A stretch of 40,635 nt of DNA, taken from IMG/VR virus record IMGVR_UViG_2541047850_000015. One strand, written 5' to 3'. Within the stretch, counting starts at the first letter, position 1. Each line of letters starts with the position of its first letter. The notes under the pieces are model-generated. The model ran no database searches. It saw only the letters and a program-made list of their open reading frames with translations, and was not told the DNA's origin. This document shows, in pieces, positions 3,297 to 25,003 of this stretch. Both the position numbers and the translations under genes were made by a program. Source of the stretch: a virus. Taxonomy: Duplodnaviria; Heunggongvirae; Uroviricota; Caudoviricetes.

Positions 3297-4220
3297 TTAA
3301 AGTTTTATTGAGTGGCACGCTCTATCACGTATCGCTGCGAATGAAGCTATCTCTTTAAGTGCCCAGCTTTGCTCAGCCATTAAATGGCGAAGTGCTTTTA
3401 GTTCAGCTCTTACTGCTGAAACGTCATACCCCGCTTTTGTCAGAATATTGATTAGTTTATACGCCGGACTGCATTCAACGAGTGCGCTGCGGTCAAGAGC
3501 AACAGTATCACCGCATTGCTGCCTGATAATGGCGTAAGGTGCATTTTCAGCAAACCATGAAATCGGGAAGTTAATATCCAGTTTTGGCGCTGGTAACTCT
3601 TCTTGTTTGCCAATGAACTCACCTTCAAGTGGAACTCGAGCTGCAAGTGACAGTGCTTCGGTGAACTGCTCCTCACTGATTTCTTTGTACGAACATCCAA
3701 AATGGGATTTCAGTGAGGACCACATGGTGATCATCGCCTTAGCCTGTTTTTCTTTTGGCAGAGACTGACCGCGACTCATGACGAGTTGTTTAATGGCTTC
3801 CTGCTGTTCAGTGGTGATTTTACCCGGCAACGCCTTTTTAGCTTTGCGTGGGTTAACTACATGACCTTTAGTCCAGTACTCGTATAGCACATCGTCACAC
3901 TCTTCCTGATACTGGATTACCTTGTCGCGGATTTCAGGACGGACTTTGTTTGGCTGAATGCTTGAAAGCCAAGCCGCAAACTTACGAAAGGCAAGGCATA
4001 TCATTAACTGTTTACCGCCAGCAGAAGGTATTTCGATTTCCGAAATACCTTTGACAAATCTCTGTTTTAATTTAACAAATTGAGCAGCCCAAACCATACC
4101 CATGCCTTCTACAACGGGTTTCATAGGAACGTAAGGTTCATTGTTAATGCTGACCAAAAAGAGATTTGTTCCGTGGAATGGAACGTTGATTGTATGTTCT
4201 GCAATTGCTACACTCGTCAT
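3297..4220 (-). CDS. ant: Antirepressor Ant (P22 Ant-like, AntA N-terminal domain plus KilAC-like C-terminal region)
   Basis: 307 aa, position downstream of arc in immI, size and organisation like P22 Ant (300 aa). Confidence 0.8.
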   Translation of the reverse strand: MTSVAIAEHTINVPFHGTNLFLVSINNEPYVPMKPVVEGMGMVWAAQFVKLKQRFVKGISEIEIPSAGGKQLMICLAFRKFAAWLSSIQPNKVRPEIRDKVIQYQEECDDVLYEYWTKGHVVNPRKAKKALPGKITTEQQEAIKQLVMSRGQSLPKEKQAKAMITMWSSLKSHFGCSYKEISEEQFTEALSLAARVPLEGEFIGKQEELPAPKLDINFPISWFAENAPYAIIRQQCGDTVALDRSALVECSPAYKLINILTKAGYDVSAVRAELKALRHLMAEQSWALKEIASFAAIRDRACHSIKL

Positions 4221-4283
4221 GTCGTTAATTCCTATGCGTGGTTTTACGATACCGAAGCCCTGACTGTTACCGCAGTTGGGGCT

Positions 4284-4505
4284 TCACTGTTTTTGTAAGT
4301 CACTGTAGCTATAAAGCCACTGACCACTCATTTTTGATTTGATTGACTCTACTGAATCACGGCAAGGAATGATTCCGCCTGACATCATTCTGATCTCCGT
4401 AAATTCACCACTCCTTATCGATTCAATGCCATCAATGTTAACTAAAGATTTACCTCTACCAAGTGCATTCTCATAGCCAATCTCATCAACCTCAATAAAC
4501 CTCAT
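4284..4505 (-). CDS. Hypothetical 73-aa protein inserted between arc and ant, start overlaps arc stop (ATGA)
   Basis: ORF in track; GAGGGG upstream; translational coupling to arc. No recognisable family. Confidence 0.45.
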   Translation of the reverse strand: MRFIEVDEIGYENALGRGKSLVNIDGIESIRSGEFTEIRMMSGGIIPCRDSVESIKSKMSGQWLYSYSDLQKQ

Positions 4506-4660
4506 ACCGTTATCCCCTCTCTCTTCAGGCTGTCCAACACTCGCTTGTAAATCTCAGAGTTAACAGATCGCCCGTTCTCTTCCGCCACCTTACGCACCAA
4601 ATCCAATACTTCTTTAGGCCACCGCAAATTGAACTGCGGCATTTTGCTCATTCCTTTCAT
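4502..4660 (-). CDS. arc: Arc repressor (ribbon-helix-helix)
   Basis: MKGMSKMPQFNLRWPKEVLDLVRKVAEENGRSVNSEIY... is near-identical to P22 Arc; start moved to internal ATG (about 4660) because upstream ORF-track extension would cover the operators. Confidence 0.92.
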   Translation of the reverse strand: MKGMSKMPQFNLRWPKEVLDLVRKVAEENGRSVNSEIYKRVLDSLKREGITV

Positions 4661-4674
4661 ATTTACCTCACAAT

Positions 4675-4723
4675 ATAGGTCCACCGTGGACCTATTGAGA
4701 ATATAGTAGAGTGCTTCTATCAT
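4675..4723. promoter_or_regulatory. immI control region: Mnt operator palindrome (about 4675-4695, TAGGTCCACCGTGGACCTA) and Arc operator (about 4703-4723, ATAGTAGAGTGCTTCTATCAT) with divergent Pant/Pmnt promoters
   Basis: Perfect 19-bp palindrome seen in sequence; second site matches the P22 arc operator as I remember it; located between divergent arc and mnt starts. Confidence 0.8.
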
Positions 4724-4750
4724 GTCAATACACTAACTTGGGGTGATGGC

Positions 4751-5005
4751 ATGGCTAGAAACGATCCGCACTTTAACTTCCGTATGCCTTTGGAAGTAAG
4801 AGAAAAATTGAAATTAAGAGCAGAGGCTAACGGAAGGTCAATGAACTCTGAGTTATTACAAATCGTTCAGGATGCTCTCTCAAAGCCATCACCGATTGCA
4901 GGCTATCGAGACGAAGCTGAACGCTTGGCTGATCAGCAAGCAGAGCAGTTCAAGGCCGTTGTGTTTGAGACACTTAAAAAGATTTATGGCAAGGATGATA
5001 AATAA
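4751..5005 (+). CDS. mnt: Mnt repressor
   Basis: MARNDPHFNFRMPLEVREKLKLRAEANGRSMNSELLQIVQDALSKPSP... is near-identical to P22 Mnt. Confidence 0.92.
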   Translation: MARNDPHFNFRMPLEVREKLKLRAEANGRSMNSELLQIVQDALSKPSPIAGYRDEAERLADQQAEQFKAVVFETLKKIYGKDDK

Positions 5006-5541
5006 TGCTGCACACAATTCATTTCTTATGCCCCGTTAACACTGCCACTGTTGGGCAACTTCAGAACCACTGTCTCACCGCATTATCTCAAGGCGCAACT
5101 GAATTAAATATCCATATATCAAGTCAGGGAGGGGAAACTGCCGCTGGCTTTACTGCGTATAACTTTCTTAAGTCACTCCCTGTTACCGTTAGAACTCACA
5201 ACATAAGCAATGTTGAATCCATAGCTAATATCGTTTTCCTGGCTGGCTCAGAACGTTTCGCAAACCCATTATCAAGATTCCTGTTACATCCTCTATTATG
5301 GTGCTTTGCCTCCCCAGCCGCCGACCATGCCAGATTGAGAGAGTACGGGAAATGCCTCGATAACGATCTTGATCGCTTCGTTGAGACGTTCAATATCGAC
5401 ATCGGAACCCATATTAGGTGGGCATCCCTGATAGCAGACTCGACCATTTTGGATGCTAACAAGGCTCTTGAGCATGGCATAATTAATTCCATAAAAACCG
5501 CAAGGCTGGCATCCAATCAGGCAAACTGGTGGGTTGTTTGA
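5005..5541 (+). CDS. ClpP-like serine protease-domain protein (178 aa), translationally coupled to mnt (TAATG overlap)
   Basis: Alignable by eye with ClpP: ISSQGGETAAGFTAY / VSTIC..S..A / RF..P.SR...H; candidate Ser-His-Asp triad positions retained (ESIAN, LLHPL, ADSTILDA). Not in the head module. Confidence 0.55.
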   Translation: MLHTIHFLCPVNTATVGQLQNHCLTALSQGATELNIHISSQGGETAAGFTAYNFLKSLPVTVRTHNISNVESIANIVFLAGSERFANPLSRFLLHPLLWCFASPAADHARLREYGKCLDNDLDRFVETFNIDIGTHIRWASLIADSTILDANKALEHGIINSIKTARLASNQANWWVV

Positions 5542-7206: not shown

Positions 7207-7360
7207 CTTTCTTCTCCATATCCATGACCTTAGCCATAAAGAAATCGATCATCCCCTGAGTCGAGCGGTAGCTTTTAGCTGCGTTACTTTCCAAAAACTC
7301 ACGCACTTCAGCACTTGGGCGGTAGGAGATAGGCTTGATATCTTTTTTCTTCTGTTCCAT
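7187..7360 (-). CDS. Small 57-aa protein, predicted ribbon-helix-helix-like regulator (first gene of the antirepressor operon)
   Basis: Hand-translated MEQKKKDIKPISYRPSAEVREFLESNAAKSY...; GAGGTG RBS 5 nt upstream of ATG; strand-helix-helix pattern by eye. Below ORF-track size cut-off. Confidence 0.4.
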   Translation of the reverse strand: MEQKKKDIKPISYRPSAEVREFLESNAAKSYRSTQGMIDFFMAKVMDMEKKGEIIIH

Positions 7361-7457
7361 TATTCACCTCATGTAGTTTTGTTATTCAATTGCTCAATCT
7401 TCAACATTAGGTTAGTACCAGACTAATATTGAGTCAATGATTTTTTAAGGTGCAAAT
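7361..7457. promoter_or_regulatory. Divergent promoter/operator region of accessory switch; imperfect inverted repeat CAATTGCTCAAT ... TATTGAGTCAATG
   Basis: 97-bp gap between divergent starts; inverted repeat seen by eye. Confidence 0.35.
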
Positions 7458-8318
7458 ATGAGTTTTGATGATTCTTTTTCTAAACGAGTTGCCATAGCGC
7501 GCAACTCCATCGGTTTGACTCAATCCGAGCTTGCTAAGAAAGTAGGCGTGGTATCCAGACAGATCGCTGCTTACGAGGGCGGGGAAGCCAAGCCAAGAGA
7601 AAAGGCACTTCAAAACCTTGCGGCTGCATTGGGAACTACCACTGAATGGCTTACGCAAGGGAAAGGAGATGGCCCTGACGTTAGCAGTGTCAAGAGAACT
7701 GTTACTGTGCGCGAGATTCCTGTGCTAACACACGTACAGGCAAGATTTGAATCGCTAGATGATTTACTAAAGACTGCTGCTATAAAGGACTTTATTCCAG
7801 CCCCTCCTGAAGCCAATGAATACTGTTTTGCCGTTGAAATACAAGGAGACTCCATGTCTTCCGGTGATGGGATTAGCTTTCCTCCTGGAACAATCGTAAC
7901 TTTCGATTCATCGCTAGAGGCTGTTTCTGGTGACTTTGTGATGTGTGTGCTGAATGATGATTCTGAGGCTACATTTAAGCAGCTTATACTGGATCAGCGC
8001 CAAATCTACCTTAAGCCACTTAACCCTTTATACCCTATGTTCCAACCTGATTTTATCGAGGTTGTTGGCGTGGCTATTCATTCTCAGTTCCGAATAAAGA
8101 GGGAAAAACTTATCTCTCCAATGCCGCATAGCGAAGTAGAGAAACTGGTTGAAGAAGCACACAAGGTTAGCCAAGATTTTTGGTCAAATGCAAAATTTGA
8201 CAAGAATACACCCTTTGACGAACGTCTTAAGCGACTAGATGAAATTGCTGAGCGCCTTGAGAAATTTGCTAACTACAGCCTTTCACAGGCCCGTTATAAA
8301 CACTCACCAGACAAGTAA
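7458..8318 (+). CDS. cI/LexA-like repressor: N-terminal HTH (XRE) plus S24 peptidase domain with about 75-aa C-terminal helical extension
   Basis: HTH segment GLTQSELAKKVGVVSRQIAAYEGG; S24 motifs GDSM and FKQL...KPLNP; AAGGTG RBS. Confidence 0.7.
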   Translation: MSFDDSFSKRVAIARNSIGLTQSELAKKVGVVSRQIAAYEGGEAKPREKALQNLAAALGTTTEWLTQGKGDGPDVSSVKRTVTVREIPVLTHVQARFESLDDLLKTAAIKDFIPAPPEANEYCFAVEIQGDSMSSGDGISFPPGTIVTFDSSLEAVSGDFVMCVLNDDSEATFKQLILDQRQIYLKPLNPLYPMFQPDFIEVVGVAIHSQFRIKREKLISPMPHSEVEKLVEEAHKVSQDFWSNAKFDKNTPFDERLKRLDEIAERLEKFANYSLSQARYKHSPDK

Positions 8319-8402
8319 TAAGCACAAAATCACTTAACCAACCCGGGTAGGCTGCGCTCCCTTGAGTCACATGGTATCCTGCACAAAACTAAGGAGGTTG
8401 GT

Positions 8403-8753
8403 GTGAATACTCAGTCTGTCATCATGGTTTTCCTTGGGCTGATTGTCGCAAAACTATATCCAGACTGGTGGAAAGGGGCATTAGCTACTGTCGCCATCTA
8501 TTTGCTTTTATCCATCGTTAAGCGATCACTCGCTGAGACCGTAAATCAAGCAAAACGTTTCTCATTTAAGAGTTTAATAAACTATGTTACTGGGCTTATT
8601 TTTTGCCTTTCAATTCTGATCGCTTCGGCTTTTTTGCCCGTATCAATAGCTAATTTTTTTGGCGCACCATATGAGGTAGGTTATCTATTCTCTGTTTCCT
8701 GTCTTGCCATTGCTCTTCTTTCCCTGTGGACGAGATCAAAGAATAAAAATTAG
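8403..8753 (+). CDS. Small integral membrane protein (about 4 predicted TM helices), GTG start with AAGGAGG RBS
   Basis: Four hydrophobic stretches of about 20 aa; lysogen-direction strand, convergent with gp16 homologue; position equivalent to P22 sieA. Confidence 0.5.
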   Translation: MNTQSVIMVFLGLIVAKLYPDWWKGALATVAIYLLLSIVKRSLAETVNQAKRFSFKSLINYVTGLIFCLSILIASAFLPVSIANFFGAPYEVGYLFSVSCLAIALLSLWTRSKNKN

Positions 8754-8770
8754 CCATCCGTGGCTGCCAG

Positions 8771-10786
8771 TTATTGAGCTTCTTTTTGTGATGCCTGTGC
8801 GACTCTGGTGAGCGATTGTGTGACCGTACTGATCGCTCTGTCATATGCTGTGCTACCTTTTGGCGTATTTGCCAGACGTAACAAGGCATTTCGTATAACA
8901 GGGCTTTCGTATGCCTTCGCTGCTCCTCCTACGACACCAGCAGCAGGAACAACAAACGCAGCCGTTTTTAGCATCCCCGCTAATACTGCTGCGTTTATGA
9001 TGCCACCACCAACTAACAATCCATAAAGCTGCTGACCATTTAAGTTTTGAACGTTCGCTTTTGCCGCGTGTCTTGTATCGTTGAGGTATTTAATAACGCC
9101 GTCCAGTTCCTTTCCATGTACGCCTTTAAAGAAAGTTGCTGATTGCTTCCTGTTCCGGTGTAACGCATTAATAAACTTTTCAACACTAATATTTCCAGAC
9201 GGATCAGTCGCCTTATCTACAGCATTCTGAACTATGGCTGCTCGTGCGTTTTGCCTACCATTGTCATCCAGAAGCCTGTAAAGCTGAGAACGTTCTGATG
9301 GGTTTTGGCTAAAAACGAGTTTTGTTACATCCTCAGGTGTAGCCTTGCCGCTGGCTATTGCCTTTTGAACGCGCGTTCTTCCCATCATGTCATTGAATCT
9401 AGCCCATGAGCGATCAACCCTAGACATATTGGCAGCTTCTTCTGAGCCTAGTTTTTGGGATACTGCTTTTTTCATATCCGCTGTATATGCCTTGTAGACA
9501 ATATCGCTGGCTTTCTGGAGCGTATCTTTATCAACAGTGTCAGATGACGCCATAAATCGCTTTCGAAGATCGGTTCTGTTTTCCCTCGCCAGACGCAGGT
9601 CATTGGGTCCGCTGGTGATATCGTCTTTAAATTGCTGCAAGACTTTTACCGCGGCTCTATCCTGAGATTTGCCCGGGCGGCTTAACACGGCAATCTGATT
9701 GTCGATAGCTTTTACCGTGTTTGAGAGATCGACAGGGGTATCCCCCATAGCGTCAATTATGCGGTTATATCGCTTTCCTGCTGCCTCAATGAATTTTTGC
9801 TGCCCTTTAGTCGCAGACTCATAAAGCTGTTTATCTGAAATTCCCCCCAGACCATCGCTAAATGTTCTGACTAAATTTTCTCGTGCTTGTTGTTGATTCA
9901 GTCGGTTCTTACCGGTTCCAAAAAAAGGAACTCTTTCGCCTAATGTTTGGGTCTGCCCCTGCATAAAGGTTTTATCTTTCAGTGTGTCACTGGTCATTAA
10001 CGGCAGGTTTCTTTCCGACGCAAAATCGACAGCAGCCTTTGCTTCCGGTGACATCTCACCGCGAACAGCCCTGGAAACCGCACTAACTGTATTTTCCAGC
10101 CCCTTGCCAACACCACCAATGCCAGCAGAAATTACCGTTTGTGCAGGATCAATATCTTCTCCGCCAGCAAGGCTGGTGCCACCCTGTAGTGCTAAATCTG
10201 TAGCAGCTGATTTCCCTATGGCACCAAGCACCGTTCCAGCCCTGCCCGCTGGTGTGAACGCTAACGCATTAGCAAGAAACGAAGTCAGGTCTTGCGGTGA
10301 TAAACCTGGCTTGTTCAGGGCATAATCACCGGATGGCAGGGAAACGATAGTGTTACCCTTCTCATCCTGCCTTAATTTCGCCCCCATGCTCTGAAGAATC
10401 TTTTCCTGAGACGCGTCGGAGCCGAAAAGTTGAGACCATCCAGCCTTCAGGGCATCCATGCTTAGTGAGTTCAACTCAGGGGCAGCCCCAACATTTTGCA
10501 GTCTCTCCATTTCTGGTGTCATTCGGCTTTCACCGGTAACGGCATCGCGCATTGCAGCACCTAAAACAGCCCCTTGCTCAGCAGAGCGATCTAGTCCTTC
10601 CTTCTGCTGAGTGGCAAGCTGTGCATATCCTGATGCAAGTGAGTTGTCTGCTGGCGATTGCTGAACACCTTGTTGTGTTGGCGCTGACTGACCAGCAAAA
10701 TACTCATCAATGGCGGCCCCAATATCTTCCGTGCTCGTACCATCAGGAAAGGTAAATGTCTTACCATTTGCAGTTACTTTCATCAT
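8771..10786 (-). CDS. Ejection (DNA transfer) protein, P22 gp16 homologue by synteny
   Basis: 671 aa at the position and size of P22 gp16, following gp20/gp7 homologues. Confidence 0.65.
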
Positions 10787-23785: not shown

Positions 23786-24223
23786 TCATCGAAGGCATTG
23801 CGTCCTGATGTATTCCTGCAGGTAGTTAACCTGCGCGGTTATCTTGTCGATTCCACTTCGGAGACGGTAATAATTGAGTTCAGCATCTGCTGTAAGTCTT
23901 GGGCTTTCTCCATTGCCCATGCTGCTGGCTCCGGTCGTTGACTTTGCACAGGTGGCGGCGACTTGCAGGCGCTTACGACCAGCAGAAACATCAGCACGGA
24001 GACTTTCGATAGTCGCGTTAGCATCAGCAAGCTCCTTTGTGTATCTGGCGTCGAGTTCTGCTACATCACGTTGACGCTTCTGCATGTCAGCAATTGTGGA
24101 TGCGGCCTTATCGCGCTGCTCTTTGTAGGCGATGGCGTTATCACGGTAGTGATTAACAGCCCATGACAGGCAAACGATGATGCAGATAACCAGAGCGGAG
24201 ATAATCGCGGTTACTCTGCTCAT
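23786..24223 (-). CDS. Rz: Spanin inner-membrane subunit Rz
   Basis: 145 aa with N-terminal TM segment, coiled-coil rest, directly after endolysin; embedded Rz1 frame. Confidence 0.85.
23839..24030 (-). CDS. Rz1: Spanin outer-membrane lipoprotein Rz1 embedded in Rz (+1 frame)
   Basis: Signal peptide with lipobox (LVVSAC) followed by proline-rich segment; entirely inside Rz. Confidence 0.7.
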
Positions 24224-24696
24224 ACCTCAATCTCTCTGACTGTTCCGCCAGCTTCTTTGAATTTTGTAATCAGGCTGTCAGCCTTATGCTCGAACTGACC
24301 ATAACCAGCGCCCGGCAGTGAAGCCCATATATTGCTGCAACGGTCGATAGCCTGACGGATATCACCGCGATCAATCATCGGTAAAGCGCCACGCTCTTTA
24401 ATCTGTTGCAATGCCACAGCGTCCTGGCTTTTCGGAGAGAAGTCTTTCAGGCCAAGCTGCTTACGATAGGCATCCCACCAACGGGAAAGAAGCTGGTAAC
24501 GTCCGGCTGCTGTTGATTTGAGTTTGGGGTTTAGCGTGACAAGTTTGCGAGGGTGATCAGAGTAATCAGTGAATAGCTCTCCGCCAACAATGACGTCATA
24601 ACCATGATTTCTGGTTTTCTGACGTCCATTATCAGTTCCCTCTGACCACGCCAGCATATCGAGGAACGCCTTACGTTGATTATTGATTTCCACCAT
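24220..24696 (-). CDS. R: Endolysin, lambda R-type lytic transglycosylase
   Basis: [51 protein letters not shown]... near-identical to lambda R as I remember it. Confidence 0.93.
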
Positions 24697-25003
24697 CTTC
24701 TACTCCGGCTTTTTTAGCAGCGAAGCGTTTGATAAGCGAACCAATCGAGTCAGTACCGATGTAGCCGATGAACACGCTCGTTATATAAGCGAGATTGCTA
24801 CTTAGTCCGGCGAAGTCGAGAAGGTCACGAATGAACCAGGCGATAATGGCGCACATCGTTGCGTCGATTACTGTTTTTGTAAACGCACCGCCATTATATC
24901 TGCCGCGAAGGTACGCCATTGCAAACGCAAGGATTGCCCCGATGCCTTGTTCCTTTGCCGCGAGAATGGCGGCTAACAGGTCATGTTTTTCTGGCATCTT
25001 CAT
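24680..25003 (-). CDS. S: Holin, lambda S-type
   Basis: [64 protein letters not shown]... near-identical to lambda S. Confidence 0.93.

Follow-up and report, generated by a model that had tools for sequence, protein, structure and literature searches.

ORF116, a predicted inner-membrane protein gene in the sieA position of a P22-like Escherichia coli prophage

Phage P22 carries sieA next to gene 16, in the order 16 - sieA - orf59a - mnt - arc - ant - 9, and two points about this gene were left open by Leavitt et al. (2024; PMC10883804): the content that replaces sieA in 44 of 66 P22-like phages, and the recognition by SieA of highly divergent ejection proteins. Here we asked what a small gene at the corresponding position, ORF116, encodes and what its product might do. 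The window that we analyzed (40,635 nucleotides; IMG/VR record IMGVR_UViG_2541047850_000015) is an E. coli P22-like prophage read in reverse, and its positions 7300-8900 are 100% identical to E. coli strain CU37RT-2. A sequence-only reading had offered two proposals for ORF116, namely a superinfection-exclusion protein that blocks DNA entry, or a membrane effector under the control of the S24 repressor-like gene upstream. The features of the locus are collected in Table 1.

Table 1. Features of the window around ORF116 and elsewhere in the prophage
Feature	Position	Strand	Description
Ant gene	3297-4220	-	immI module (3297-5541 region)
sar RNA	4222-4288	+	Rfam, 77.7 bits
Arc-family gene	~4502-4660	-	immI module; coordinates transferred from the CU37RT-2 annotation
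Mnt-like Arc-family gene	~4751-5005	+	immI module; coordinates transferred from the CU37RT-2 annotation
ClpP-like protease gene	5005-5541	+	abuts the Mnt-like gene
HTH_3 + Peptidase_S24 (LexA/CI-like) repressor gene	7458-8318	+	Pfam: HTH_3 6.7e-10, Peptidase_S24 3.8e-16
5' expression joint, 34 nt	8372-8405	+	TGgTATCCT (TG 8372-8373, TATCCT 8375-8380), leader, Shine-Dalgarno AAGGAGG (8391-8397), 5-nt spacer, GTG (8403-8405)
ORF116 gene	8403-8753	+	116 aa, GTG start; ORF listing and translation
3' hairpin	8752-8765	.	AGCCA-TCCG-TGGCT; overlaps the TAG stop (8751-8753); between convergent ORF116 and gp16 genes
gp16-type DNA-ejection protein gene	8771-10786	-	671 aa; PHROG 770 'DNA transfer protein', E=2.8e-171
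Putative lysis-cassette ORFs	23786-25003		by size and position only

The ORF116 gene and its predicted product

The direction of ORF116 transcription is the reverse of that of the late operon, and the gene converges with the gp16 gene across a gap of 17 nt, beyond which gp20-like and gp7-like genes follow. The strand, the adjacency to the DNA-ejection genes and the GTG start with a strong ribosome-binding site had all been claimed from the sequence alone, and all three claims held. In homologs with 37-40% identity, an ATG occupies the exact position of the window GTG, and the length, the start, the Shine-Dalgarno sequence, an N-terminal MNxQ and an invariant VAKLYP are kept. Comparison of ORF116 with its Yersinia homolog gave a dN/dS of 0.12-0.15 (dS ~1.3), and the gene is under purifying selection. 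At the DNA level, ORF116 is full length in 227 of the 229 E. coli copies. Public annotations of its start are in conflict, giving 109, 116 or 130 aa. The 109-aa version of PGAP begins at an internal ATG at 8424 that has no Shine-Dalgarno sequence (annotated at L004:4125-4454), and this start is probably wrong; the 130-aa annotations, which come from the divergent-allele group (L005/L006:4962-5351), use an ATG farther upstream and look like over-extensions. Because both homology and the Shine-Dalgarno sequence point to the GTG, we favor the 116-aa version.

We found ORF116 in 229 of 5426 complete E. coli genomes (~4%), in two allele groups; the ST95 ExPEC strains S88 and APEC O1 are among the carriers. 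An exhaustive profile HMM search revealed seven representatives of the family among 1.84 billion proteins and contributed only four distant members, with no more found by a profile word search. In a word-indexed protein database the family comprised 24 clusters, all of them annotated as 'hypothetical', and the named sources were E. coli, Salmonella, Yersinia enterocolitica and Edwardsiella tarda. ORF116 had no significant match in Pfam, PHROGs, NCBIfam or PADLOC (in PHROGs and PADLOC none at E ≤ 1), no sequence match in the PDB by HMM, and no fold match in the PDB or BFVD by Foldseek. The Pfam library that was scanned did not include PF26849 and PF26808, and P22 SieA and gp16 were also unmatched by it; since this library misses P22 SieA itself, its nulls are uninformative on SieA, and hhalign and precomputed Pfam assignments were used for that comparison. 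Among GenBank phages, tblastn gave no ORF116 match even at E ≤ 10, and since this null was possibly weakened by low-complexity masking of a transmembrane protein, the search was repeated with blastn-distant, which gave no match either. A protein-pattern scan of the GTDB species-representative genomes found no relatives of ORF116, and a literature search by ORF116 protein accessions found no mention. Matches to back-translated AKLYPDWW in Bacteroidota and cyanobacteria lay in unrelated loci and were rejected as chance.

Four hydrophobic helices had been read from the sequence earlier, and the topology predictions agreed: Kyte-Doolittle analysis gave four hydrophobic segments (aa ~4-17, 25-39, 58-83, and 92-109) and AlphaFold2 predicted four helices (aa 3-18, 22-47, 55-85, and 90-115), with a modest confidence that was reflected in a pLDDT of 56.7 for 7 sequences and 66.4 for 11. 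The short TM1 and TM2 have 13-15 hydrophobic residues; rather than crossing the membrane twice, they could make a re-entrant hairpin. The K/R charge is +5 in the loop at aa 40-57 and +3 in the tail at aa 110-116; these counts place the loop and the tail in the cytoplasm and therefore predict an N-in/C-in topology, and the turns LYPDWW (aa 18-23) and GAPYEVG (aa 87-93) are predicted to be periplasmic. ORF116 consists almost wholly of membrane helices, arranged as two helical hairpins with a longest loop of 18 aa, and we found in it no enzymatic or sensor domain. Residues V15, K17-L-Y-P20, F53, Y61, G64, L65, F67, P79, L108, and R111 are invariant in the family alignment. From these predictions we infer that ORF116 is an inner-membrane protein.

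A 5' joint common to sieA and ORF116 and the cassette site behind it

The position of ORF116 had been proposed to be equivalent to that of P22 sieA, and this equivalence turned out to extend to the nucleotide level. Window positions 8370-8405 (36 nt) are 100% identical to the 5' leader and start of P22 sieA; the identity runs through the Shine-Dalgarno sequence and the GTG and ends at the start codon. Among 50,697 phage records searched with megablast, this P22 sieA 5' end was the sole match within the ORF116 locus. The joint is common to P22, the window, E. coli S88 and E. coli CP159170, with unrelated flanks on both sides: in P22 it precedes sieA, in S88 it precedes ORF116 and lies behind a YafO-type toxin-antitoxin pair, and in CP159170 it has the same S24 gene upstream as the window and a 62-aa ORF downstream. 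The sieA-B gene of prophage HS1 carries a diverged copy of the joint leader. Because the leader, the Shine-Dalgarno sequence and the GTG are shared with sieA, and because the adjacency to gp16 is invariant, the assignment of ORF116 to the sieA slot is strengthened.

The TGgTATCCT sequence resembles an extended -10 element, and its conservation suggests that it may function as a promoter; a consensus scan upstream of ORF116 found no canonical sigma-70 -35/-10 pair, and the folding energy of the leader was nothing exceptional. TGGTATCCTG, at positions -31 to -22, was 95-100% conserved in 94 unique IMG/VR instances among the matches listed, at positions that fell outside the search pattern, and identity across those 94 joints dropped off 5' of -32 and 3' of +3. 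For P22 sieA, an 85-bp upstream fragment that includes the joint is enough for single-copy function (Leavitt et al., 2024; PMC10883804), and lysogens express the gene, carrier cells doing so more strongly (PMC4697819). These results and the diverged HS1 leader are consistent with the extended -10 reading.

An IMG/VR scan for the exact 22-nt sequence CAAAACTAAGGAGGTTGGTGTG returned at least 120 loci (L016-L135), and the ORFs that begin at the joint GTG fell into at least 12 unrelated clusters, SieA included. Among the matches listed, these were a 107/109-aa type with an N-terminal TM segment and a coiled coil (n = 27), a 129-aa type with a signal peptide (n = 24), a 62-aa two-TM type (n = 13), the 164-aa SieA-A (n = 10), ORF116 (n = 9), a 75-aa multi-TM type (n = 9), a second 109-aa type (n = 8), a 106/103-aa type (n = 6), a 99-aa type (n = 5), a soluble 140-aa type (n = 5), a 149-aa type (n = 5), and a 68-aa type (n = 2). 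An N-terminal TM segment or a signal peptide was present in 10 of the 12 types among the matches listed. The cassettes other than SieA and ORF116 match PHROGs with no assigned function, except for the 140- and 149-aa types, which match no PHROG. In each cassette representative that we inspected, a convergent gp16 gene followed and then gp20. The 62-aa two-TM ORF of CP159170 (MKKKFVNVAKCAIFIFF...; PHROG 21338; L003:5104-5292) is unannotated, and the RefSeq interval is empty.

At the other end of the cassette, the hairpin (A)GCCATCCnTGGC(T) after the stop codon was present at every locus of the ORF116 family, the 37%-identity members among them, and it also follows most of the unrelated cassettes (62, 68, 99, 109, 140, 149, and, for SieA, 164 aa). 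It is likely the 3' boundary of the cassette. In the window, the hairpin was scored as terminator-like on the minus strand by a terminator scan and its folding energy was unexceptional; it is a possible terminator for gp16 transcripts.

The link between ORF116 and gp16 extends beyond E. coli. The two genes lie tail to tail in E. coli, Yersinia, Edwardsiella and four metagenomic loci (37-40% identity members), and the gp16 beside each member of the family is 62-99% identical to the window gp16, whereas the identity of the window gp16 to those of P22, HS1 and CP159170 is ~30%. Among the matches listed, ORF116 pairs with the gp16 C-terminal type G3 in nine of nine cases, the P22 gp16 type G0 pairs with SieA-A, the 62-aa, the 129-aa and one 109-aa cassette, and the overall pairing is nearly one-to-one, with each cassette going with roughly a single gp16 C-terminal type (G0-G5). 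Since the sample is partly clonal, physical linkage alone could explain this pairing. The mutations that escape SieA are located in the C-terminal parts of gp16 and gp20 (PMC10883804). An exception to the adjacency is a remnant in O111:H8, in which there is no gp16 gene and ORF116 is intact beside ykgL; an intact copy in such a remnant is expected of a gene that benefits the host.

Two of the elements that carry the divergent alleles, at 92-93% DNA identity, are the one in E. coli O111:H8 (L005) and one in E. coli U15A that lies beside yicG (L006). Both have no tailspike on that side and have PerC-family, HTH and Doc-toxin genes upstream, and they look like defective P22-like prophages; the O111:H8 element has lost the gp16, gp20 and gp7 genes altogether. 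In Edwardsiella tarda (L008), gp16 and gp20 are followed directly by SSB and DUF927/Toprim primase genes, rather than by gp7 and the remainder of a P22 late operon, and this element is an unusual mosaic or satellite-like.

ORF116 has the marks of a moron: it occupies a fixed variable site, brings its own promoter-like element, Shine-Dalgarno sequence and start codon, is transcribed in the opposite direction, and has a GC content of 39.9% in comparison to 47.2% for the window. The region between genes 16 and 9 has been described as the 'ant moron', a place of rapid gene flux with unnamed genes of many non-identical functions, and diagrams of it have been published for the APEC-1 and UTI-1 prophages (Villafane et al., 2008; PMC2629481). 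ORF116 falls in that hypervariable region, and ORF116 DNA is found in APEC O1; the difference is that the earlier work, to the extent that we could find, describes flux of gene content, and not a bracket of joint and hairpin or a pairing of cassettes with gp16 types. Thus 'ant moron' flux (PMC2629481) and small membrane superinfection-exclusion proteins as a kind are already known, and three things appear to be new: the ORF116 family, a bracketed layout in which the cassettes share one joint, and the correspondence between cassette and gp16 type. We tentatively suggest that the sieA slot may be a dedicated site for exclusion-allele cassettes matched to ejection-protein variants, and that ORF116 may be a minimal blocker tuned to the gp16/gp20 conduit of the window type. 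The portable 34-nt joint and the 3' hairpin would then bracket at least 12 unrelated envelope proteins, each co-inherited with one gp16 type. Since no sister cassette has a known function, SieA is the sole basis for the exclusion theme of this slot.

Candidate functions of ORF116

Judged by its position, its predicted membrane location and the analogy with SieA, superinfection exclusion is the most economical function for ORF116, and we give about an even chance to the specific proposal that ORF116 is a prophage-expressed inner-membrane protein that blocks the entry of P22-like phage DNA as SieA does. In this proposal, ORF116 would replace SieA in the sieA slot as a non-homologous protein, would be transcribed from TGgTATCCT or on a transcript that continues from the S24 gene, and would reside in the lysogen's inner membrane. 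There it would stop the incoming gp7/gp20/gp16 conduit from completing DNA transfer across the inner membrane, and it might act on the conduit via its periplasmic turns or TM3. The occurrence of the joint at SieA-A and, in diverged form, at SieA-B of HS1 speaks for exclusion, as does the convergent linkage to gp16 down to 37% identity; against it, ORF116 has no homology to SieA of type A or B, does not have the SieA motif, and differs in architecture.

The idea that ORF116 is a SieA homolog was rejected in comparisons with SieA types A and B: BLASTP against P22 SieA gave E=0.32, and hhalign gave 0.7% for type A and 0.08% for HS1 type B. Precomputed Pfam assignments placed PF26849 on the SieA entries (except P0030, a 106-aa partial) and nothing on any ORF116-family protein. 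The FxRYPxEAxxFNK motif, which is cytoplasmic and C-terminal in SieA (PMC10883804), was found by regular expression in P22 SieA (FGRYPGEANGFNK), is visible in HS1 SieA-B (FNRYPGEARKFNK), and was absent from ORF116 in the same kind of search. SieA (PF26849; types A, B, and C) and ORF116 are alike in occupying the slot between genes 16 and 9 convergent with gene 16, in having an identical leader, Shine-Dalgarno sequence and GTG and a similar post-stop hairpin, and in being small, polytopic, single-gene, predicted inner-membrane proteins. They differ in that SieA has 162-212 aa and 3-4 TM segments, with a long hydrophilic loop separating TM1 from TM2, whereas ORF116 has 116 aa, no such loop, and a tie to another gp16 lineage.

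T4 Imm, HK97 gp15 and lactococcal Sie2009 are short phage membrane proteins that each block DNA entry singly at the inner membrane, and some of them are morons (reviewed in PMC11436027). ORF116 resembles them as a short, phage-encoded, predicted inner-membrane protein; they have 1-2 TM segments in comparison to ~4 in ORF116, and belong to other phage groups with other injection machinery. As ORF116 has no PHROG match at E ≤ 1, it shows homology to none of the PHROG families, those that may represent these blockers included. Lambda RexB is a four-TM inner-membrane partner of RexA, and ORF116 is likewise a small, four-TM, apparently prophage-expressed inner-membrane protein; it differs from RexB in having no PADLOC match, no RexA-like partner in any context, and another genomic location. 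No conserved partner gene of any kind was found beside ORF116 across its contexts.

Position alone cannot fix the function of ORF116, because the genes of the 'ant moron' vary in function (PMC2629481), and ORF116 might be a membrane moron expressed in the lysogen for a purpose other than blocking P22-like injection, such as membrane-based abortive infection against unrelated phages, DicB- or Cor-like inhibition of a transporter or receptor, or a stress or colonization trait. We consider this rather unlikely, and the evidence falls on both sides. In addition to the general gene flux of the site, secreted and soluble sister cassettes are unlikely to be SieA-like, toxin-antitoxin and ClpP-like genes are neighbors in other prophages, ORF116 is kept in remnants without ejection genes, and it has no similarity to superinfection-exclusion families in PHROGs or PADLOC. 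However, ORF116 uses the exact joint and slot of sieA, is strictly tied to one gp16 lineage across deep divergence, and is nearly all membrane helices, with neither a partner nor a domain for catalysis or sensing.

It is improbable that ORF116 serves the phage's own cycle, be it as a holin-, antiholin- or pinholin-like protein or as a factor for the phage's own DNA entry or carrier state. Its small size and several TM segments would fit such a role, expression of P22 sieA goes up upon induction and in the carrier state, and there were non-significant holin echoes (Phage_holin_3_6 at E=0.06-0.16; 'holin' as the top BFVD hit at E=0.77). All holin matches are at noise level, though, with the best one far under the gathering score and Foldseek against BFVD giving E ≥ 0.77, and ORF116 as a holin was rejected. 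Moreover, lysis-sized ORFs, assigned by size and position only, lie elsewhere in the window and do not include ORF116, the transcription of ORF116 opposes the late operon, and the gene is intact in defective prophages.

For the content of the slot in sieA-less phages, the question left by Leavitt et al. (2024), the locus suggests an answer: the slot is filled by non-homologous membrane or secreted proteins that have the same start signals. If ORF116 does exclude phages, it would be a new, minimal injection blocker of 116 aa that is almost all membrane, the natural pairs of cassette and gp16 type would be a ready set for mapping the passage of the conduit through the inner membrane, and the result would bear on which P22-like or podophage therapeutics to choose for use against E. 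coli and Salmonella. Failing that, ORF116 is still an abundant and conserved prophage membrane protein of no known function.

The second proposal of the sequence-only reading, in which the HTH-S24 repressor upstream controls, or is functionally coupled to, ORF116 as a membrane effector, was not upheld and is very improbable. The S24 gene lies at the Mnt position, and since it is on the same strand as ORF116, is separated from it by 84 nt, and has no predicted terminator between the two, co-transcription in the window prophage is plausible; in HS1, too, sieA-B is preceded by an analogous HTH gene. The two genes occur together, however, in just 5 of the 229 ORF116-carrying E. coli genomes, a mosaic breakpoint at 8370-8372 separates them, the upstream neighbors of ORF116 in S88 are the toxin-antitoxin pair, the S24 gene of CP159170 precedes a different, 62-aa cassette, and the upstream genes are unrelated in the Yersinia, Edwardsiella and metagenomic homolog loci. 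The S24 gene is a context gene and no obligate partner of ORF116, and it is at most co-transcribed with ORF116 in the window prophage. The last alternative, that ORF116 is a chance or non-functional reading frame, might be suggested by its database label of 'hypothetical protein' and its conflicting starts (109, 116, or 130 aa), and is so improbable as to be effectively refuted by the conservation pattern, namely the low dN/dS at a dS of ~1.3, the start, Shine-Dalgarno sequence, length and motifs maintained down to 37% identity, and the near absence of truncated E. coli copies.

The S24 repressor itself has 286 aa, with GDSM (Ser) and FKQL (Lys) as catalytic motifs and an additional ~80 aa at the C-terminus; inspection of its linker revealed no obvious Ala-Gly cleavage site. 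A 213-aa relative of it precedes sieA-B in E. coli HS. Beyond the S24 gene lie genes for a 57-aa protein and two antirepressors (Bro-N/P22_AR_C and ORF6N), and the S24 repressor may connect antirepressor expression to SOS. Since a classical immI module, with genes for Ant, Arc-family and Mnt-like proteins and the sar RNA, is also present in the window, this prophage carries two antirepressor modules. The abutting pair of Mnt-like and ClpP-like protease genes in the immI region was also found in S88 and CP159170.
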